A DNA stretch of 64,000 nucleotides from an uncultured Mycoplasmatota bacterium (lineage in GTDB: Bacteria > Bacillota_I > Bacilli_A > RF39 > UBA660): contig URNW01000005.1 of the NCBI GenBank assembly GCA_900549285.1, positions 794-64,793 of the forward strand, read 5' to 3'. The notes below the pieces were generated by a model that saw only the letters and a list, made by a program, of their open reading frames with translations, had not been told where the DNA came from and did not search any database. Position 1 is the first letter of the stretch. The number at the start of each line of letters is the position of its first letter. Shown here piece after piece: positions 43,811 through 62,978 of this stretch. A program made the position numbers and the translations under genes.

Positions 43811-44102
43811 ATTTAGATTACAATATGTTTAATTATAGACTGGCGGATATTTCGACTGACGATTTAAACGAAATTAATTTAGATTACAATATGTTTAATT
43901 ATAGACATTAAAACTTTACGGGAAACAAAATTTTTATAGAAATTTAGATTACAATATGTTTAATTATAGACAAATAATTATGAAATAAAAGGGTTTAGTA
44001 CTCTTAAATTTAGATTACAATATGTTTAATTATAGACCTGTCTTTGTTTTGTGGGTTCCTTGCATCATAGTAATTTAGATTACAATATGTTTAATTATAG
44101 AC
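43811..44102 (-). CRISPR. CRISPR array 1: 5 identical 30-nt repeats, 4 spacers (35-36 nt)
   Basis: The plus-strand repeat atttagattacaatatgtttaattatagac starts at 43811, 43877, 43942, 44008 and 44073. The transcribed orientation is inferred as minus (GTCTATAATTAAACATATTGTAATCTAAAT). This rests on the AT-rich leader on the cas2 side and the typical I-B ...CTAAAT 3' end. Confidence 0.95.
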
Positions 44103-44228
44103 CCGCGTTTTTATTCATAATTTCATTTTTATCATAACATAATTTATATTTTTTCTCTATAAATTTTTAATTTTTTATAATTAATTTCTGTCGATGCTCT
44201 ACATTTTTCTCCGTATTATAGGTCGACA
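44103..44228 (-). promoter_or_regulatory. leader of array 1 with a conserved 40-nt palindromic TATAAT-containing motif (44189-44228)
   Basis: Homologous to the leaders at 48624-48750 and 52779-52902. In the minus-strand reading the motif is tgtcgacctataatacggagaaaaatgtagagcatcgaca. Confidence 0.7.
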
Positions 44229-48135: not shown

Positions 48136-48623
48136 ATTTTAATGGATTATTCATAATTATAAACTGGTTCATGAACAGTAGAGCCACTATCGCTACTATA
48201 ATTTAGATTGCACTATGCATCATTATAGACGATTCTACTGGTCAAGGAATAATTATTTCTGATGGATTTAGATTGCACTATGCATCATTATAGACATTAT
48301 ATTAAAAAGAGTTGTGTTATCAAGTTAGCAAATTTAGATTGCACTATGCATCATTATAGACTGCTTAAAAAACGTTGCTTAAAGTCCCGTAAATATTATT
48401 TAGATTGCACTATGCATCATTATAGACGTATCAAGAATTAGACGCTATCGAAGTCGAAAACGAATTTAGATTGCACTATGCATCATTATAGACTTAAAAA
48501 TTAAGGATAGTGTAGATTTAAAAGAATTATTTAGATTGCACTATGCATCATTATAGACCCAACGACACTATATACAAAGATTATTTAGATTTAATTTAGA
48601 TTGCACTATGCATCATTATAGAC
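48136..48623 (-). CRISPR. CRISPR array 2: 7 identical 30-nt repeats plus 1 degenerate terminal repeat, 7 spacers (35-36 nt), embedded between cas5 and cas3
   Basis: The plus-strand repeat atttagattgcactatgcatcattatagac starts at 48201, 48266, 48332, 48398, 48464, 48529 and 48594. A degenerate repeat attttaatggattattcataattataaac lies at 48136-48164, exactly one 36-nt spacer away. Confidence 0.95.
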
Positions 48624-48750
48624 TCGTAGTTTTACTAATAAGATTGGTTTTATTTTATCATAAAGTATCTAAAATTTCTATAAATATATATAATTTTGTA
48701 ATATTTTTTCTGTCGATCTCCCAAGTTTTTAACGCTATTATAGTTCGACA
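48624..48750 (-). promoter_or_regulatory. leader of array 2 with the conserved 40-nt motif (48711-48750)
   Basis: In the minus-strand reading the motif is tgtcgaactataatagcgttaaaaacttgggagatcgaca. It lies 87 nt from the first repeat, against 86 nt in leader 1. Confidence 0.7.
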
Positions 48751-52996: not shown

Positions 52997-53341
52997 AGTT
53001 TTGTTATTTTTGCGATATATTGTTATAAGAAAAAAGACAGCTTATTTAAAATGACGTTAGACTTTTCTAGTTTGCCATTTAAAGTCGTCTTTTTCATGCT
53101 ATTTGATAGTATAACTTTTTATATAGAAAATCAAACCAAATCAATGGTTCGACTTTTCAATACATATAATTAATGGGGCAATAAACTAATGAGTTTTGCA
53201 CCCAAGTTAGTAATACTTGATGAATTAATTATAGCATCATTTAATAAATTTTACAAAGTCTTTTACATAAAGCAAATTAAAATTAAGTTAATTTATTTTA
53301 AAATATTAATATTTTTGCTATAATATAATTAAATAGTAAAG

Positions 53342-54019
53342 GTGATGGATGTGTTTAGGAGCGAATTAGAATTACAAAATAAATTTATTAATTTAATGAA
53401 ACAAGATAAACAAGATCATACTTATATTTCAGATGAATTTAATGCAAGATTTGGTAATGTTGATATTGTTAAAGTAAAATATGATAATAATACACCTTTA
53501 ACAAAAAAACAGGCTGATATACTTTCTAATATAGCTGCTGCAAGAATCGTTGGGTATTTGCATAAAAAATCAATGAGAACTTTATCTTATTTAATAAAAA
53601 ACTCTGGTTATACCGAAGAATATATATTATCCATTTTGTCAAAATTAAAATCAGCAAATATTATTAATGAACCAAAATACTATAGATATATAATTAATGA
53701 ACAATTTGAGTTTCCTAAATTAGTTTTTAGTTCTTATGAAGCAAAATTAACTGATTGGCAGAAAGCAATTTCTCAAGCAATAAAAAATCAAGCATTTTCA
53801 AGTGAGTCATACGTTGTAATGCCTGAAAAAATTGCTAAAAAATTATCGTTAACTAAGAAAAATTATTTTTTGTCATATAATGTTGGTTTAATCGCTGTTA
53901 ATAATGATAAATACAAAATTCTTGTGAAACCTAAAATTCAAAAAAATAATTATTCTCAGGCTTCATTAATTAGCAGTATTGCAAAATATTTAATATTACA
54001 AAAGCAAGTCGTTGCGTGA
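53342..54019 (+). CDS. hypothetical protein, possibly a wHTH inserted in a PD-(D/E)xK-like fold (tentative)
   Basis: 225-aa ORF with an extended -10 TGcTATAAT at 53316-53324 and aaaggtga before the GTG/ATG start. The candidate nuclease residues (GNVDIV ... YEAKLTDWQKA) are only a guess. Confidence 0.4.
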   Translation: MMDVFRSELELQNKFINLMKQDKQDHTYISDEFNARFGNVDIVKVKYDNNTPLTKKQADILSNIAAARIVGYLHKKSMRTLSYLIKNSGYTEEYILSILSKLKSANIINEPKYYRYIINEQFEFPKLVFSSYEAKLTDWQKAISQAIKNQAFSSESYVVMPEKIAKKLSLTKKNYFLSYNVGLIAVNNDKYKILVKPKIQKNNYSQASLISSIAKYLILQKQVVA

Positions 54020-54031
54020 CTTGCTTTTTTT
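54004..54031. terminator. bidirectional terminator between convergent genes
   Basis: Stem gcaagtc (54004-54010) / gacttgc (54018-54024), with a T-run downstream and an A-run upstream. Confidence 0.65.
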
Positions 54032-55247
54032 AATCCATATAATGACTTTTTTTAAATTCATTTAATGCTAATTGATAATTTTTTACATGAATATTTGTTA
54101 TAGCCGTAATAGGTTTAGGAACCAGATGATTATATCTATCAATGCTGTTTAATGCCTTTTCTATTACATCACTAGCATAATTAATTCTGTCTTCAATATC
54201 TAAATCTTTCATTGGTTTTAACAAATCGTTTAATGCTTCAAAATATTGTATATACGTAGTATTTAGTGATATTTCTTCAATGCTTTTACTATTACGGATG
54301 TCTTTATCTAAATTAGTATCACCAACAATTAAGTTAAATATTTCTTCTTTATTTTCAGGCATAGCTTGAAATAAAATTTCTTCCATTTTGACTTCATGCA
54401 GTATTTTAATTGAAGTATATCTTTTTATATGTCTTCCTTGTCTTTGAAAAACTTCAAGTCCTTTTTCTTGACGATTAAACTTTCTTAAAGAATAAAACCA
54501 GCCTGATGAAATTGAATTAGCACCTGATGCAATTAAAAGTAAACTTTCTAATCCACAATAACCATAAATAACATCAAAATTTGCATTGCTTAAAGTATAA
54601 TTAAAACTCATAATATTAGATAATCTAGTTGAATCAAAATTATGTCTTATAGTGTCACCATTATCTCTATCTATAACTATATGGATTCCATTAATATCCC
54701 CACTATAATTTCCTAAATCAGAAATAAAATCATTTACGTCATTCATGTTATTAAAAGCATTTTCCTGAGCCACTATTGAAACATATATTTTTTCTGACAA
54801 ATCATTTTCTTTTTTATATTTTATTGCAAATTCACACATATCAAATATCTTATCAACAATTCTTCCATCAAAGCTAGATAAGTAAACTGTAGGCAATAAC
54901 AATTTACTTACATTATATAATTTTTGATAATTAAAACATTTAATAATATATCCTTCTAGTTTTTTACTGTCTCTTAAAAATGTTCTGTCTATTATTTCAT
55001 CTGGAATATAATCCAAGTCTTTTAATTTTTTTATTTCAGAATTTTGAAATTGTTTATAAAACCATTTATTATCAACTATATTGTCAATTTCTTTTAAACT
55101 TGGATTTGTATCTTTTATTTCATTTACTTTTTCAAAAGTTTCTTCTCTTGGATCCCAGATAATACCATCTACTAAATTTTTATTCAATATTTCTAGAACT
55201 TTTGGTCTCCAGGCTGGTCCATTTTGAATATAAATCATATTACTCAC
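54030..55247 (-). CDS. hypothetical 405-aa protein, partner of the Ser/Thr kinase
   Basis: Long intact ORF overlapping the kinase stop by 8 nt. I could recognise no family motif. Confidence 0.5.
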   Translation of the reverse strand: MSNMIYIQNGPAWRPKVLEILNKNLVDGIIWDPREETFEKVNEIKDTNPSLKEIDNIVDNKWFYKQFQNSEIKKLKDLDYIPDEIIDRTFLRDSKKLEGYIIKCFNYQKLYNVSKLLLPTVYLSSFDGRIVDKIFDMCEFAIKYKKENDLSEKIYVSIVAQENAFNNMNDVNDFISDLGNYSGDINGIHIVIDRDNGDTIRHNFDSTRLSNIMSFNYTLSNANFDVIYGYCGLESLLLIASGANSISSGWFYSLRKFNRQEKGLEVFQRQGRHIKRYTSIKILHEVKMEEILFQAMPENKEEIFNLIVGDTNLDKDIRNSKSIEEISLNTTYIQYFEALNDLLKPMKDLDIEDRINYASDVIEKALNSIDRYNHLVPKPITAITNIHVKNYQLALNEFKKSHYMD

Positions 55248-56199
55248 ACTCCTTTAATTGTTCAACTTGTAAAATTGCTTTATCTATATCATTGAATCTA
55301 TTTAATTTTTGATATGAAGATAGGTTTACAATAATATTTCTAAAAACTTTCATTCTTTTTATATTATCACTAAATTTTTCTTTCCATATAATATACATCT
55401 CATCTAGATCTCTTAAAGTTTTAAAATTCTTTCTCAATTCTGGAATATACATTTCCATAGCCATTATTCCTATTGGGTACAAATCTGTTTGAAAATTCCA
55501 TTTATAATCTGGTGGATAATTTTGTTGTTCAGGTGCCCAATATCCTCTTGTTCCAAGTAAATTATGAGAAAGCATACTATTTCCTTCTTCTTCCTTTAAA
55601 TTTTTTCCTAATCCACCATCAATTACTTTATAAACTTCTTCATTAATAATAATGTTATCAGGCTTTAAATCTCTATGTACATATCCACTATTATACATTA
55701 TTTTTATATGATTTAACATTTGTAAAATAAAATCTAATACCTCATTATCTGAATAATTGTCTTTATATTGTAAGCTTGAACCTTCAAACTTCTCTTCAAT
55801 GTAGTAAGCAACCCAATAATAACTATTAACAAACACATAATTAATTGTTTCAAAAAATTTTAATTGAGGTAAATTTGAACAAGCTTTATTCATTTTTATT
55901 TCAGTGTTTATTCTTTTACATTCAGAATTTATTCTTGTAAATATTTCATTTAAAATATTTCTATCAATACCTTCTAGATTATAATTATTTGATATATCAA
56001 AATTATCATAAACGTCATATGGAGTTACATCTACAACTTTACAAGCATATTCAATGTCATCTACTCTAATAAAATAAACTTTCTTTTGACCACTATCTTT
56101 TTTTAATATTTTTACTTCGCTAACATTGATTCCTTTTTCCAATAATATTTTTTTCAAATCTTGTTCTGATAAATTAATCACTAGTACCAAATCCTCCAA
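55240..56199 (-). CDS. Hanks-type Ser/Thr protein kinase, soluble, stand-alone catalytic domain
   Basis: Motifs: YACKVV (VAIK-like Lys), HRDLKPDNIII catalytic loop, DGG (DFG variant) and GTRGYWAPE (APE motif). The true start may be the GTG at 56181, 11 nt after GGAGGA. Confidence 0.75.
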   Translation of the reverse strand: MEDLVLVINLSEQDLKKILLEKGINVSEVKILKKDSGQKKVYFIRVDDIEYACKVVDVTPYDVYDNFDISNNYNLEGIDRNILNEIFTRINSECKRINTEIKMNKACSNLPQLKFFETINYVFVNSYYWVAYYIEEKFEGSSLQYKDNYSDNEVLDFILQMLNHIKIMYNSGYVHRDLKPDNIIINEEVYKVIDGGLGKNLKEEEGNSMLSHNLLGTRGYWAPEQQNYPPDYKWNFQTDLYPIGIMAMEMYIPELRKNFKTLRDLDEMYIIWKEKFSDNIKRMKVFRNIIVNLSSYQKLNRFNDIDKAILQVEQLKECE

Positions 56200-56295
56200 T
56201 CAAAAAATAAAAGCGCAATACAAAACCTGATAAAGTCTGTACTAGCACTTTAAACCTAAAAGTATTATATCAAATAATTCTACAAATTACTACAC

Positions 56296-56865
56296 TTATA
56301 ATTTTAATATCTCATTGTTATTAAAATTGTTTTTTTGCATTTCTAAATACCATTTATATTCTTCCAATTCTTTTAAATAATCTCTTTTAAAATAATTTTC
56401 GTATAACCATTTAACTCCTTCTTCTTTAACACATATAACATCATCTTCTTCAAAGGTTATAGGATAAGGAAAAACTTTTCTCATCCTATGAAGTGCTACA
56501 TGAATAGCACTTACACTTTTATCAAATTTATATGGTAGAAATCTTAAAGAAGTAGATACATATTTATTTCTTTTATGATCTATTCCTAACTCATTTTCTA
56601 AATCAAAAATTTTTTCTTTATAAAATTCAATTTCAGAAGTTAAATAATGTACTTTTTTATTGAAATAAACTTTTCTTAACCATTCAACACATTCCTTATT
56701 TATATACATTTTTGATTTATTATCTTTATCTCTATCTATCCATAAATAGTAATCATATTTGTGTCTTCGTTTTATATTTCTTAAGACTCTTCCAATTTGT
56801 TTTGTAGTTAATGAAAACATTTCTTGAACATCTTTTCTTTCTATCCATTCTTGATTCATACACAT
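56296..56865 (-). CDS. hypothetical DNA-binding protein with an internally repeated module
   Basis: 189 aa with an N-terminal HTH-like segment (FSLTTKQIGRVLRNI). Two similar segments are ECVEWLRKVYF and EGVKWLYENYF. Confidence 0.4.
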   Translation of the reverse strand: MCMNQEWIERKDVQEMFSLTTKQIGRVLRNIKRRHKYDYYLWIDRDKDNKSKMYINKECVEWLRKVYFNKKVHYLTSEIEFYKEKIFDLENELGIDHKRNKYVSTSLRFLPYKFDKSVSAIHVALHRMRKVFPYPITFEEDDVICVKEEGVKWLYENYFKRDYLKELEEYKWYLEMQKNNFNNNEILKL

Positions 56866-57176
56866 CTCGTATCTAATAAAGGCATATCAATTACTAATAT
56901 ATCGGCTTTAATATTCTTTGTAATATCTTTCCACTCATCAATTATCATATTATAATTTCTACCTAATCTATCAATGCTTTTAATAACTAATAAATCATTT
57001 TCTCTTAACACATTTTTTAATATACTATATTGCTCTCTATTAAAATCTTTACCACTTTGCTTATCAATATAAATATCTCTTTCATCATTACCATATTTTT
57101 TAAATGCTACTAATTGTCTTTCTTCATTTTGGTCTTTACTACTAACCCTTGCATAACCAAATATTTTATTCTTCAT
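56856..57176 (-). pseudogene. serine recombinase (resolvase/invertase) catalytic domain only, truncated after ...DMPLLDTR
   Basis: GYARVSSKDQNEERQ nucleophile motif and VIKSIDRLGRN. The ORF stops at 106 aa and lacks the E-helix and the C-terminal HTH. Confidence 0.65.
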
Positions 57177-57602: not shown

Positions 57603-58367
57603 TTATTTAATAATCATTGCTGCTATAAAACTGCCAATACTAGCCAATTCCGACAATATACTTAAAACACTTTTCTTATCTTTCATCTTAATTGCATTTT
57701 CTAATTTTTCCAATTTATCTTTACAGTCATTATTTTTCATTTCCATTTTTATTGCCTCTATTTTACTATCTAATAATTCAAACAACTTTTCATCACTAAT
57801 ATTATTAACATTAGCAACATTTCCATTGCCTTGCTGACTTATATATGTTCCATATACTATTGGACTGCCTTGACTCATATTACTTTGACCCATAACAACT
57901 TTAATATTATCATAAATAATTGTACCTAATCTATTATCATAATATCTAAAAATACTATTATCAAAACTAATTAAGCCAATATTACGGCACTCATTTAAAA
58001 TTTCTCTAATAGCTTCATTACACATATTATCAAATACATCTTCTAAATTTTTAAATGCTTCATTTCCATAATTACTAATAATTGCCTTTAATTCATTTAC
58101 TTTATAATTTATATATTCTTTTTGACCCAAAAAATTCAGTATAACAAATTTCCCAACTATACCTTTACCGCCACTTAAATCTTGCCACATTCCTTTTTTA
58201 TTTAATGTAACTAAACTTTCATTTTCAACTACAAAATCATATGGCACATACTTCATTTTTTCTAAACATAACTTTTCAAATTCTTGCCATTTCAAATCAT
58301 CACTTTTGTCTTCTTCATATACACTACTATAAACATAATTAAAAAGGCTAATATTTTTATTATTCAT
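57603..58367 (-). CDS. hypothetical 254-aa protein with a C-terminal hydrophobic helix
   Basis: Intact ORF. The C-terminal ILSELASIGSFIAAMIIK is a TM-like tail. No family was recognised. Confidence 0.45.
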   Translation of the reverse strand: MNNKNISLFNYVYSSVYEEDKSDDLKWQEFEKLCLEKMKYVPYDFVVENESLVTLNKKGMWQDLSGGKGIVGKFVILNFLGQKEYINYKVNELKAIISNYGNEAFKNLEDVFDNMCNEAIREILNECRNIGLISFDNSIFRYYDNRLGTIIYDNIKVVMGQSNMSQGSPIVYGTYISQQGNGNVANVNNISDEKLFELLDSKIEAIKMEMKNNDCKDKLEKLENAIKMKDKKSVLSILSELASIGSFIAAMIIK

Positions 58368-58437
58368 CTTACATCACCGTATAATATTATACATTATTTT
58401 TACTATATATCATAGTTATTTGCTGTTTATTCCTCGC

Positions 58438-58550
58438 AAATTTCAATAAAAAATGGTAACTCAATATAATTATACTAAATTGCCTAAAATACTTTAAACT
58501 TACTAATATGCTATTATTTTTACTGACTACTCATATTTTTTAATATACCA
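58438..58550. repeat. copy A of a ~115-nt direct repeat (promoter-bearing intergenic module)
   Basis: About 88% identical to 59569-59684. On the minus strand it contains tataat (...aggcaatttagtataattat...). Confidence 0.8.
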
Positions 58551-58562
58551 TATTTTTAAATA

Positions 58563-59513
58563 TTATTTAAAAATATTATAATAGTCATTACTTAACTTTA
58601 ATAAATAATCCTCTTTAACTATACTATCTAACCATTTACTAGGTAAATTACCATAATATATACCACTTAAACCACCAAATAATGCTCCAATAGTATCACT
58701 ATCATTTCCTAAATTGATGGCTTCAATGACACATTTATCATAACTATTATTATTCATAAAACACCATATAACTGCCTCCAATGTATCAACAACAAAACCC
58801 ATACTACTAATACTATCTACATCTAATTTACTAATATCATTATTTAATAATCTGTCATAATACTTTATATTTTCCAAACTAAAATATTTTCTATAATTAT
58901 ATTTTCTTATATTACTATAAGCATTTACTTTTTCTTCGCCACTTAATAACTCTATAACTAAAAGCACATATATAAAACAATCTAATATACTTATTTCGTG
59001 TCTATGGGTAAATGATGATACATCTTTTACTAAATTATATATTTCATTTTCATTTAATTTTTTATAATAACAATAGTAAGCAATAGGTAATATTCGCATT
59101 AAACTACCATTACCATTATAATTAAAACCTTTCATACCACAATCAGTTATCTTTTCATATCTTTTATTATAATAATTGCCTAAAGCAAAAAATGTTGCTC
59201 TGCCAATGCCGAATGCTTTATCAATAGCAATAAAATCTTTATTTGAAACCCATAAAATAAAATTATTCATAATACTTTCATAGTTTATTTTACCTTTATT
59301 ATCTATAATCGCTTTCATTGTAGCAATAACCATACTACTATCATCAGACCAAACACCTTTTACACCAATTCTATCACTACTAATCATATCTGTAACTTTA
59401 TTATTTTTAAATATTTCTCTTTTTTTAAATTCTAATGGAACACCTAAGGCATCTCCAATAATAAAAACTAATATTCCATTTTTCAATTTATTAAAATCGC
59501 ACATCATTACCAT
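58563..59513 (-). CDS. ADP-ribosylglycohydrolase family protein
   Basis: IIGDALGVPLEF, WSDDSSM and GNDSDTIGALFGGLSGIYYG motifs. Confidence 0.8.
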   Translation of the reverse strand: MVMMCDFNKLKNGILVFIIGDALGVPLEFKKREIFKNNKVTDMISSDRIGVKGVWSDDSSMVIATMKAIIDNKGKINYESIMNNFILWVSNKDFIAIDKAFGIGRATFFALGNYYNKRYEKITDCGMKGFNYNGNGSLMRILPIAYYCYYKKLNENEIYNLVKDVSSFTHRHEISILDCFIYVLLVIELLSGEEKVNAYSNIRKYNYRKYFSLENIKYYDRLLNNDISKLDVDSISSMGFVVDTLEAVIWCFMNNNSYDKCVIEAINLGNDSDTIGALFGGLSGIYYGNLPSKWLDSIVKEDYLLKLSNDYYNIFK

Positions 59514-59527
59514 CGCACATCATTACC
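59496..59527. repeat. perfect 16-bp tandem duplication spanning the annotated start codon of the ARH gene
   Basis: atcgcacatcattacc occurs at 59496-59511 and again at 59512-59527. The ATG (59513-59511, minus strand) is formed at the junction. Confidence 0.9.
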
Positions 59528-59568
59528 ACTCGACTTTATTATATATTAAATATTTATTTTTTCGCTTT

Positions 59569-59684
59569 AAATTTCAATAAAAAAGGTAACTCAATATAAT
59601 TTATACTAAATTACCTAAACTACCTTAAACCTACTAATATGCCGTTATTTTACTGACTACTCAAATTTTTTTAATACATTACCA
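59569..59684. repeat. copy B of the ~115-nt direct repeat
   Basis: Its last ~28 nt overlap the 3' end of the 303-aa gene (NGNVLKKFE*). Copy A retains a decayed version of this coding tail. Confidence 0.8.
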
Positions 59685-60568
59685 TTTCTATAATAATCTT
59701 CATCAGCAAATCTTACGCATATAACATTATTATTACTATCTAAATATAATATAACATTATCACTAAAATCAGTTCTTATTCTATACCCCTTAGATCCTTC
59801 GCCCTCAATGCCATCTAATATCTCACTATCTGCTACCATATCATCAAATTCATCTAAACCTATATCTTCTAATATATTGTTTATTTCTGTTGCCTTATCT
59901 ACATCAACATTAGCAACTCTACTAATTATATTAACCTCTCTTGGGTTCCCACCACCAACTGACAAAGCAATTCCTACTATCAATACGAAAAATAATATTA
60001 CACTAACTAAAATACCTACAAATACTTTTAATTTCTTTGTATCTTTTAAAACTGTACCACAATTTTTACATTTATAATCATTAAAATTATATACAGCACC
60101 ACACTTAGGACATTTTAATTCTTGCTTACTAATATCAACAGCATAATTTAATGCTTTCATAAAAGTATTATCTATAACACCCTCATTAGCATATACATTA
60201 ACCACTTTTTCTTCGCCGTTAACTTTATAATTTACTACCAAATAATCAATATTTTGTATTATTTGCTTCTTTTGTAAGCCACTTAAACCACCTAATATTA
60301 AACCAGCACCACCAAATAATACATTACCAACTATTCCGCGACCTATAACACTTTTATCTTTTTCTATCAATTCTTTATCGCTAATAATTGCTACATTACT
60401 AATATCTTTTAAATTAATCTTTAAAATAGGTCTTTTCTTAATATCACAAAACTGTAATTCATAGTTAGTTAATCTAACAATACAACTTGCTCCCTCTCTA
60501 ATACCTAACCCCTCATAATGTTTAACCTCTTTTGAATAAAATATTTTTTCTTTCATAACGCACCTCAC
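59657..60568 (-). CDS. hypothetical membrane protein (PH-like N-terminus, glycine zipper, zinc ribbon, TM, extracytoplasmic C-domain)
   Basis: GNVLFGGAGLILGGLSG and a CPKCG...CKNCG ribbon. The TM segment is VFVGILVSVILFFVLIVGIAL. Confidence 0.5.
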   Translation of the reverse strand: MRCVMKEKIFYSKEVKHYEGLGIREGASCIVRLTNYELQFCDIKKRPILKINLKDISNVAIISDKELIEKDKSVIGRGIVGNVLFGGAGLILGGLSGLQKKQIIQNIDYLVVNYKVNGEEKVVNVYANEGVIDNTFMKALNYAVDISKQELKCPKCGAVYNFNDYKCKNCGTVLKDTKKLKVFVGILVSVILFFVLIVGIALSVGGGNPREVNIISRVANVDVDKATEINNILEDIGLDEFDDMVADSEILDGIEGEGSKGYRIRTDFSDNVILYLDSNNNVICVRFADEDYYRNGNVLKKFE

Positions 60569-62901: not shown

Positions 62902-62978
62902 TGGGGCGAGATAAGGGAGTCGAACCCTTGCATAACAGAGCCACAATCTGCCGTGTTAACCACTTCACCAATCCCGCC
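62902..62978 (-). tRNA. tRNA-His (GTG anticodon), with encoded G-1 and CCA
   Basis: The reverse complement is GGCGGGATTGGTGAAGTGGTTAACACGGCAGATTGTGGCTCTGTTATGCAAGGGTTCGACTCCCTTATCTCGCCCCA. It has a cloverleaf with anticodon loop TTGTGGC, a GGTTCGACTCC T-arm, and an extra 5' G pairing with C73. Confidence 0.9.

Follow-up and report, generated by a model that had tools for sequence, protein, structure and literature searches.

Kinase-based defence systems and the cassette under study

Stk2 of Staphylococcus epidermidis reportedly acts alone, phosphorylating host proteins, and the TerY-P triad, composed of a TerY vWA protein, a PP2C phosphatase and a kinase, is said to function in defence. Other described systems based on Ser/Thr kinases are PD-T4-6, a single-gene defence system from E. 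coli consisting of a Ser/Thr kinase of eukaryotic-like type (Vassallo et al., 2022; PMC9519451), and the KKP module of Pf prophages, which comprises the kinases PfkA and PfkB plus the phosphatase PfpC and has been linked to phage defence (PMC11341870). Here we analyse a cassette with genes for a Hanks-type Ser/Thr kinase, a protein modelled as a TIM barrel and a predicted nuclease, contained in a stretch of 64,000 nt (hereafter, the window) from an uncultured Mycoplasmatota bacterium (RF39; UBA660; assembly GCA_900549285.1, contig URNW01000005.1, positions 794–64,793 of the forward strand). An earlier reading of this DNA (the original prediction) had proposed that the kinase gene and the one following it, coding for a partner with no recognisable motif, were a novel defence or abortive infection pair. 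We found that the conserved unit has three genes, including the predicted nuclease that this reading had missed, and that the three occur together in 57 of the 57 related loci with enough DNA. Judging from comparative sequence analysis, the cassette is probably a system of defence, or one directed against mobile genetic elements; as best explanation, which we hold at about even chances, it would be a self-contained three-gene cargo cassette, most likely protecting its host, or the element that carries it, against phages or foreign DNA.

No model in PADLOC (v2.0.0, 2023 release) matches the TIM-barrel protein, in any of its subfamilies, or the third protein, and we found no description of the three-gene architecture in the searchable full-text literature, which leaves subscription-only papers outside its coverage. 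The window kinase retrieves the PADLOC models PD-T4-6 (8.3e-19, the best), mad6, MkoA and Stk2, in generic matches that involve only the kinase core; the match to PD-T4-6 reaches 65.8 bits, versus 70.6 bits for the Pfam family Pkinase. Since the PD-T4-6 models also label the housekeeping PASTA kinase in every Streptococcus thermophilus genome examined (PMC11514479), this match does not establish membership. Both kinases share a Hanks-type domain and a defence context, but PD-T4-6 is a single-gene system in PADLOC whereas the cassette kinase was never seen without its two partners in the 57 loci, and we rejected its inclusion in PD-T4-6. As a consequence for annotation, pipelines miss the cassette, or probably mislabel it as single-gene PD-T4-6, overlooking the other two genes.

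The remaining described systems were likewise rejected. Only residues 88–227 of the window kinase align to the Stk2 model, at positions 158–292 of 500 (E 1.6e-12), and the cassette kinase, unlike Stk2, has obligate TIM-barrel and nuclease partners; the likeness to Stk2, a stand-alone Hanks kinase that would be activated by infection and trigger an abortive response, belongs to our working model only. For MADS (mad6), the match to NF047741 is of 29.1 bits, versus a cut-off of 460, and there are no mad-like genes among the three of the cassette. It resembles TerY-P in being a three-gene cassette with a Ser/Thr kinase, and KKP in being a prophage-borne three-gene module based on such a kinase. 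However, it contains a single kinase and no phosphatase, whereas KKP has two kinases and neither a TIM barrel nor a nuclease, and neither of the cassette partners has a phosphatase, vWA or kinase domain (Pfam; AlphaFold2 [AF2] folds).

The conserved unit comprises three genes

For the co-occurrence count, we used the three proteins, as profiles or as sequences, to search the open reading frames (ORFs) of all the fetched loci, designated here with L numbers; six loci cut by contig ends and a chimeric one (L059) were left out. Gene order and orientation are fixed: the kinase gene, with a product of 281–317 aa, is followed by that of the ~400-aa TIM-barrel protein, and a gene for a protein of 221–276 aa, in which no Pfam domain was found, lies convergently, immediately downstream of the latter or overlapping its 3′ end. 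The triad accompanies three subfamilies of the TIM-barrel protein, a close one from Firmicutes (~33–45% identity to the window protein), a middle one (L062 and L063; ~27%) and a high-GC one (L033–35 and L064; ~21%), and its loci span from 23 to 68% GC (62–68% in the high-GC subfamily). The third gene is an obligate part of the unit, which is a triad and not a pair.

The original prediction of a two-gene architecture, with a kinase and its partner as the system, which would make the 225-aa neighbour unrelated, agrees with the coupling of the first two genes on the same strand. Yet a gene of the 225-aa family is convergent to them in all the loci examined, which represent three subfamilies of deep divergence, and it is included in the minimal block shared with other loci (positions 53290–56210). 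The two-gene model is extremely unlikely and was rejected from the synteny data.

As an aside, the chimeric locus (an ERZ781269 contig of 2502 nt) has a coverage of approximately 2x and, by eye, retains only the last ~40 codons of its third gene, joined to an unrelated sequence resembling mammalian LINE-1 ORF1.

The cassette moves as a discrete block

Loci L006 and L041 (98% identical) share with the window only positions 53172–56868, L042 (92% identical) shares only ~53180–56868, and L007 (85.6% identical) only the 53290–56210 block, that is, the three genes plus their upstream regions. Divergence from L006 amounts to 3–10 differences per kb within the triad and ~80 per kb just outside, and the comparisons show that the cassette is transferred as a discrete block. 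The same tRNA-His gene is separated from the cassette by 6 kb in the window, 5.5 kb in L041 and 0.9 kb in L042, from which we deduce a variable cargo island at this tRNA gene. The island setting proposed earlier was borne out, with type I-B cas genes and two CRISPR arrays to one side and a resolvase fragment and tRNA-His to the other, in DNA of 26% GC. The suggestion of a novel defence or abortive infection module is favoured by the sporadic occurrence of the cassette and this mobile, defence-island context, by the block transfer and by the lack of a PADLOC v2 model for the two non-kinase proteins; what did not hold is its composition, because the pair for which it was formulated is an incomplete unit.

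Several relatives are carried by mobile elements. The slot between the HTH repressor/ImmA (Peptidase_M78) and integrase genes is taken by the cassette in phage-like elements of three independent kinds (L036/L037, adjoining smpB, and L062 and L063, both contigs from IMG/VR); the cassette was also found on an integrative and conjugative element (ICE) that has genes for a T4SS coupling protein (T4CP), an integrase and MNT/HepT (L034), on an integrative element with Prim-Pol (L035), on a relaxase/MobC/TnpV/serine-recombinase element (L024, L038) and, in Enterococcus, on a small integrase/Rep_trans element that is inserted at three distinct places (L002–L004). In other loci it adjoins Hachiman (L030), GmrSD plus a methylase (L033), a reverse transcriptase plus a KAP NTPase (L005) or DUF6414 plus recombinases (L001). 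The commonest neighbour families in 14 further species genomes were serine recombinases (5), Mob_Pre (4) and integrases (3); among the other neighbours there are AbiA/DRT, RT-SLATT, an S subunit of type I, a methyl-directed restriction endonuclease and PDC candidates. Separately, three of the four high-GC loci (L033, L034, L064) have, at most 1–2 kb from the triad, a gene for a DNA methyltransferase (EcoRI_methylase or N6_N4_Mtase), which may be coincidental phage or restriction-modification (R-M) cargo, or a hint of a link to DNA modification.

These contexts are also compatible with a module that serves its element, either by addiction, in the manner of a toxin-antitoxin pair, or by controlling lysogeny and induction as KKP would, with defence as a side effect. 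A nuclease restrained by the kinase-enzyme pair would act like a toxin-antitoxin pair, the cassette occupies the repressor/ImmA-to-integrase slot of prophages besides being present on ICEs and integrative and mobilizable elements (IMEs), and KKP is an example of how a module of kinases can govern lysogeny as well as defence (PMC11341870). Nevertheless, it is also found without any recognisable element, beside CRISPR-Cas or Hachiman and at the ends of capsule loci, and it includes no phosphatase or other obvious reversing activity. Because the integrase-repressor slot is also a classic site for prophage defence cargo, it cannot separate both possibilities; overall, we regard a role in the service of the element as unlikely.

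The three proteins evolve at different rates, the kinase being the fastest and the nuclease the slowest. Median identities to the window proteins are 34.5% for the kinase, 40.5% for the TIM-barrel protein and 48.4% for the nuclease and, with respect to L006, there are 10 nt changes in the kinase gene (6 of them non-synonymous), seven in the TIM-barrel gene and two in the nuclease gene, all of these synonymous.

The kinase is of the Hanks type and lacks additional domains

The window kinase contains a single Pfam domain, Pkinase (1.9e-19; 70.6 bits versus a cut-off of 31.7), and the closest solved structure is the kinase domain of S. aureus PknB (4eqm, E 1e-13). The motifs YACKVV, HRDLKPDN, DGG and GTRGYWAPE, already pointed out in the original prediction, are all present in the ORF, and its assignment to the Hanks type is further sustained by TEIK and TDL; in the DGG motif the Asp is kept and the Phe is not. 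An alignment of 28 cassette kinases revealed conservation of the β3 Lys, the αC Glu, HRD..P.N, the Asp of DxG, GT..Y.APE and TDL, although not of the Phe of DFG. From these conserved catalytic motifs we conclude that they are, in all likelihood, active protein kinases. Kinases from the Firmicute clade contain a variable insert of ~30 residues between β3 and αC.

It was also correctly anticipated that the kinase has no transmembrane segment, the maximum 19-residue hydropathy being ≤1.22 in all three cassette proteins, and that it does not belong with the PknB/Stk1 PASTA growth kinases, an identity that we rejected from the lack of transmembrane segments, the single Pfam domain and a score of 55.5 bits to NF033483, whose cut-off is 450.

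In a clade from Bacillus and Lentibacillus (L001, L005, L010, L016 and L017), the catalytic loop HRDLKPxN is replaced by HRDLTPRN, with loss of the Lys and an Arg two positions further on, resembling tyrosine kinases (HRDLAARN). This loop may confer an altered substrate specificity.

The partner is a predicted TIM-barrel enzyme

Searches with the partner in Pfam, PADLOC, NCBIfam and PHROGs did not yield any match, in agreement with the earlier remark that it had no recognisable motif, and comparisons to PDB sequences produced nothing beyond chance level. None of 61 sampled members of its family matched a Pfam family even at E ≤ 1, and the sole member name in 10 clusters looked up was "hypothetical protein". 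An exhaustive profile search retrieved 651 representatives of 50%-identity clusters at E ≤ 1e-3, and 383 at E ≤ 1e-10. Among the 150 best listed clusters, proteins are mostly of 385–415 aa, and the shorter ones look like fragments.

The AF2 model of the partner is confident (pLDDT 90.1, pTM 0.91) and displays eight β-α units, as in a (β/α)8 TIM barrel. The barrel would extend from residue 1 to ~250, followed by a flexible loop of low confidence (252–267), a β-hairpin and a C-terminal helical bundle (285–399). With eight strand-helix units and conserved residues following the strands, the model places the partner among TIM-barrel proteins. The best Foldseek matches in the PDB were an archaeal phosphoenolpyruvate (PEP) carboxylase (3e-5), pyruvate kinase, ribulose-phosphate epimerase and ICL/PEPM, with TM-scores (TMq) ≤0.39. 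Nearly all of the top 50 matches are annotated as enzymes that are TIM barrels, most of them with probabilities of 0.9–1.0. Matches in the viral library BFVD were weak, the highest being to phage proteins similar to tRNA guanine transglycosylases (TGT; TMq 0.46). Since Foldseek returned only generic TIM barrels, with TMq ≤0.46, no specific enzyme family can be named.

Residues conserved throughout the family are Q5, G25, D56 (100%), P57, P116, E159, G184, Y186, R191, G226, Y227, D229, G246, W247, R252, G268, R273, Y274 and S276, and the conserved motifs are S/D29-P-R31, D56-P-Q, Y227-x-D229, G268-R269 and R273-Y-T/S-S276. The conserved polar residues sit at the C-terminal ends of the barrel strands, a pattern that resembles the active site of an enzyme, with abundant Arg, Tyr and Trp. 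The presence of an invariant Asp (D56), of E159, of four Arg and of several residues of Tyr and Trp suggests that the substrate could be phosphorylated or similar to a nucleotide.

An R-x-x-S motif (R273–S276, window positions 54411–54422) directly follows the only low-confidence loop of the model. It is found in 80–93% of the whole family, as KRYTS in the window and RAFS in the high-GC subfamily, and is a candidate site for a basophilic kinase, although it could equally belong to the active site.

The third protein is a predicted nuclease with a core split by a winged helix

The third protein is the best conserved of the three; among 91 homologues, D41, E133, K135, W139 and Q145 are invariant and E8 and E32 nearly so, with D41 belonging to an FGNVD motif that is invariant from F37. 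Its AF2 model (pLDDT 90.6) has an α-β-β-[wHTH]-β-α-β topology, in which a winged helix-turn-helix (wHTH; residues ~55–118) is inserted between the strand containing the Asp and that containing ExK, and the motif residues E8, D41, E133-A-K135 and Q145 map onto the matching elements of the core. In Foldseek searches, the best match to the core was 3dnx (E 5e-3, TM 0.29/0.42), and the insert matched winged helices of Zα, ArsR and MarR. The former is an MmcB-like protein (SPO1766) of the PD-(D/E)xK clan, and the third protein resembles it in the α-β-β-β-α-β core and in the E...D...ExK...Q set of motifs. It is also basic (34 K+R versus 20 D+E, net charge ~+14). No Pfam nuclease family was found and scans of Pfam, NCBIfam, PHROGs and PADLOC at E ≤ 1 gave only weak winged-helix signals, while a profile search of PDB sequences gave chance-level matches. 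On motifs and topology, with weak structural support, the protein falls within the PD-(D/E)xK superfamily, and we predict it to be a DNA-binding nuclease. The high-GC third proteins show the same order of motifs, GRPD...IEAK...W...Q.

Cap4 and Card1 are PD-(D/E)xK effectors gated by a ligand or by another domain. The third protein is mechanistically analogous in that its nuclease core is combined with another domain, possibly a regulatory one, but it has no SAVED or CARF domain and its winged helix, of ~85 residues, is inserted in the core. Likewise, TIM-barrel enzymes participate in conflicts over nucleic acids, such as the TGT/DpdA transglycosylases and the RdrB deaminase, with which the partner shares the general fold; however, there is no sequence or profile similarity to them, and neither TGT nor deaminases are among the best PDB matches.

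The pairing of a barrel and a nuclease could also be explained by an R-M-like system, in which the TIM barrel, possibly a very distant relative of TGT/DpdA, would modify the host DNA, with the help or under the regulation of the kinase, and the nuclease would cleave unmodified incoming DNA. Convergent genes for a nuclease and a modifier that share a terminator are reminiscent of many R-M operons, the third protein is basic and, in the model, carries a DNA-binding winged helix, and DNA methylase genes lie beside the cassette in the three high-GC loci indicated above. Besides, among the highest scores in the viral library are those of a "tRNA guanine transglycosylase" from a phage (TMq 0.46) and of a putative queuine tRNA-ribosyltransferase from an archaeal virus (TMq 0.37). 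Against this, all fold matches have TMq ≤0.46, no TGT appears in the top 50 PDB matches, no Pfam family, TGT included, was detected at E ≤ 1, the alignment lacks a conserved Cys/His cluster for the zinc site of TGT/DpdA, and a fast-evolving kinase would not be expected as the partner of a housekeeping modification. An R-M-like system is quite unlikely in our opinion, and the identity of the barrel as TGT/DpdA was itself rejected (no Pfam match at E ≤ 1 in the 61 members and no conserved Cys/zinc site), being further disfavoured by the PDB results and by phage TGT-like models that do not exceed TMq 0.46.

Alternatively, the genes could form a housekeeping signalling or metabolic operon, where the kinase would control a barrel using sugars or PEP in the synthesis of envelope polysaccharides and the third gene would code for a winged-helix transcription factor. 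Two independent copies (L005, L027–29) belong to clusters for capsule or polysaccharide or are situated where these end, and the best PDB folds are barrels using PEP or pyruvate, sugar-phosphate barrels and a glycoside hydrolase. But capsule loci are hot spots for recombination, and in L005 the cassette arrived with a reverse transcriptase and a KAP NTPase. Only 18 of 185,579 species representatives were matched in a pattern scan, near-identical cassettes have unrelated flanks, the cassette is carried by prophages, ICEs and IMEs, and the third protein shows no variation in its PD-(D/E)xK catalytic residues. This possibility appears to us very unlikely.

Proposed function

Defence by a mobile three-gene cassette is, then, the reading that we prefer, and within it specific roles can be proposed, although the whole set of assignments is rather unlikely to be right. 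The minimal Hanks kinase would be the sensor of infection or a switch, which we suppose because it is the fastest-evolving part and has a variable β3-αC insert. Its production and that of the TIM-barrel enzyme would be stoichiometric, and it would act together with this enzyme or upon it, the R273–S276 motif after the flexible loop being a candidate phospho-acceptor, and the separately transcribed, basic and most conserved wHTH-nuclease would be the effector that cleaves DNA. A more detailed scheme, and an improbable one, is a new type of immune signalling pathway in which, upon infection, the kinase phosphorylates the TIM-barrel enzyme, perhaps at the R-x-x-S motif that follows the flexible loop, a small molecule that is phosphorylated and similar to a nucleotide is made or destroyed as a result, and this allows the nuclease, gated by its winged helix, to cut DNA.

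Several observations weigh against a defence cassette with these components. Some of the neighbourhoods are housekeeping or capsule loci (L005, L027–29, L040), and no member of the close subfamily was found in PLSDB plasmids or INPHARED phages (tblastn with the TIM-barrel protein) or in the IMG/VR scan; more distant subfamilies are represented in IMG/VR by three prophage contigs. None of the components is similar to a validated defence protein, except in the generic kinase domain, and the roles were assigned by analogy and from relative evolutionary rates. The designation of the third protein as a nuclease derives from motifs, the AF2 topology and one weak Foldseek match (E 5e-3). Additionally, the profile of the low-GC third proteins did not retrieve those of high GC, and hhalign aligned both groups with E 0.003 and a probability of 10%, with the motifs in register; we accept their homology because of this register and of the identical synteny.

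The TIM-barrel and split-nuclease proteins are two families without description in the curated databases searched. If a role in defence were confirmed, the cassette would be a widespread system, spanning 651 clusters at 50% identity from low-GC Firmicutes (Bacilli, Clostridia) and high-GC bacteria (62–68%), and would add a family of TIM-barrel enzymes and a nuclease whose core is split by a DNA-binding domain. Should the signalling pathway be true, it would also bring a new enzyme family and chemistry into immunity, with eukaryote-type kinase signalling joined to a nuclease effector. The cassette would offer a compact case for the detection of infection by a minimal eukaryote-like kinase without a sensor domain of its own, and for the relay of the signal to an effector, with clear handles for mutation. 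As it is located in the integrase-repressor slot of prophages from Bacillus and Enterococcus, it could have consequences for phage therapy and for the robustness of starter cultures.

Gene starts and expression signals

Table 1. Coordinates of the cassette genes, their putative expression signals and other features of the window.
Feature	Position	Strand	Remarks
Hanks-type Ser/Thr kinase	55240–56199	-	ORF from TTG 56199; probable start GTG 56181, 313 aa
TIM-barrel partner	54030–55238	-	402 aa, ATG start
Third gene (wHTH-split PD-(D/E)xK protein, predicted)	53342–54019	+	225 aa; alternative ATG 53345 gives 224 aa; convergent
Shared hairpin between convergent genes	54000–54028	both	Flanking A and T runs
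Extended -10, TGATATAAT	56272–56264	-	TATAAT with TG; upstream of kinase gene; weak -35 TAGTAA
Promoter-like site, third gene	53297–53324	+	TTTAAA, 16-nt spacer, TATAAT, with TG
Type I-B cas genes (Cas6, Cas8b, Cas7, Cas3, Cas1)			One flank of the cassette; family scans
CRISPR array	43811–44105		Repeat ATTTAGATTACAATATGTTTAATTATAGAC, 5 copies
CRISPR array	48201–48626		Repeat ATTTAGATTGCACTATGCATCATTATAGAC, 7 copies
189-aa ORF	56296–56865		
Resolvase fragment	56856–57176		106 aa; tRNA-His flank
254-aa gene	57603–58367		Unknown
ADP-ribosylglycohydrolase gene	58563–59513		Pfam 3.8e-54; tRNA-His flank
Zinc-ribbon gene	59657–60568		303 aa
HTH (helix-turn-helix) genes			tRNA-His flank
tRNA-His	62902–62977		Opposite flank to cas genes, ~6 kb from the cassette

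The two ORFs on which the original prediction was based, of 319 aa (55240–56199) and 405 aa (54030–55247) on the minus strand, are both present in the ORF listing. The overlap of 8 nt deduced from them had to be corrected, because it depends on an upstream GTG: the partner starts at ATG 55238, the position at which 44 of 44 homologues start (MIY/MIF...) and which has AAGGAG 10 nt upstream, leaving a single base between the genes (TAA-T-ATG). In the homologues, the spacing between the kinase and TIM-barrel genes stays between -4 and +2 nt, which makes translational coupling plausible. The kinase itself probably starts at GTG 56181, preceded at 10 nt by GGAGGA (56197–56192), which results in a product of the same length as its homologues.

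The predicted bidirectional terminator is likely to be real, since the hairpin between the convergent genes folds on either strand (-13.8 kcal/mol on the plus strand and -14.7 kcal/mol on the minus strand; z -3.2 and -4.65). Its first arm is formed by the last codons of the third gene. The hairpin was not picked up by a consensus terminator scan, probably because its stem takes up the T run. The promoter proposed for the kinase gene fared less well: the TATAAT does exist, with TG, but promoter-like matches occur at chance frequency (32 found versus 29.6 expected in shuffles), so the -10 is statistically indistinct from the AT-rich background and the promoter is no more than plausible. For the third gene, a promoter-like site with 10 of 12 matching positions, a consensus match only, ends 18 nt before the start codon and falls within the block shared with L007. 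Both promoter regions contain inverted repeats that are AT-rich and uninterpretable.

Other features of the island

The two CRISPR arrays have related but distinct repeats of 30 nt, and that at 48201–48626 sits within the type I-B cas locus, between the genes from cas3 to cas1 and those for cas8b, cas7 and cas6.

Upstream of the kinase gene, the resolvase fragment retains only the N-terminal domain and overlaps the start of the 189-aa ORF. The latter had no database match and seems, by eye, to consist of two similar halves ending in ...V(E/K)WL...YF; it diverges with respect to L006 approximately 8 times faster than the adjoining triad. In L041 there is a second, partial copy of the 5′ part of this ORF (window positions 56602–56868; 88% identical) on the far side of the cassette, which may be a scar of recombination or a flanking repeat. 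Further along the same island, the ADP-ribosylglycohydrolase gene lies between the 254-aa gene and the zinc-ribbon gene, and the genes in 57603–60568 could be an ADP-ribosylation toxin-antitoxin system or another defence module.

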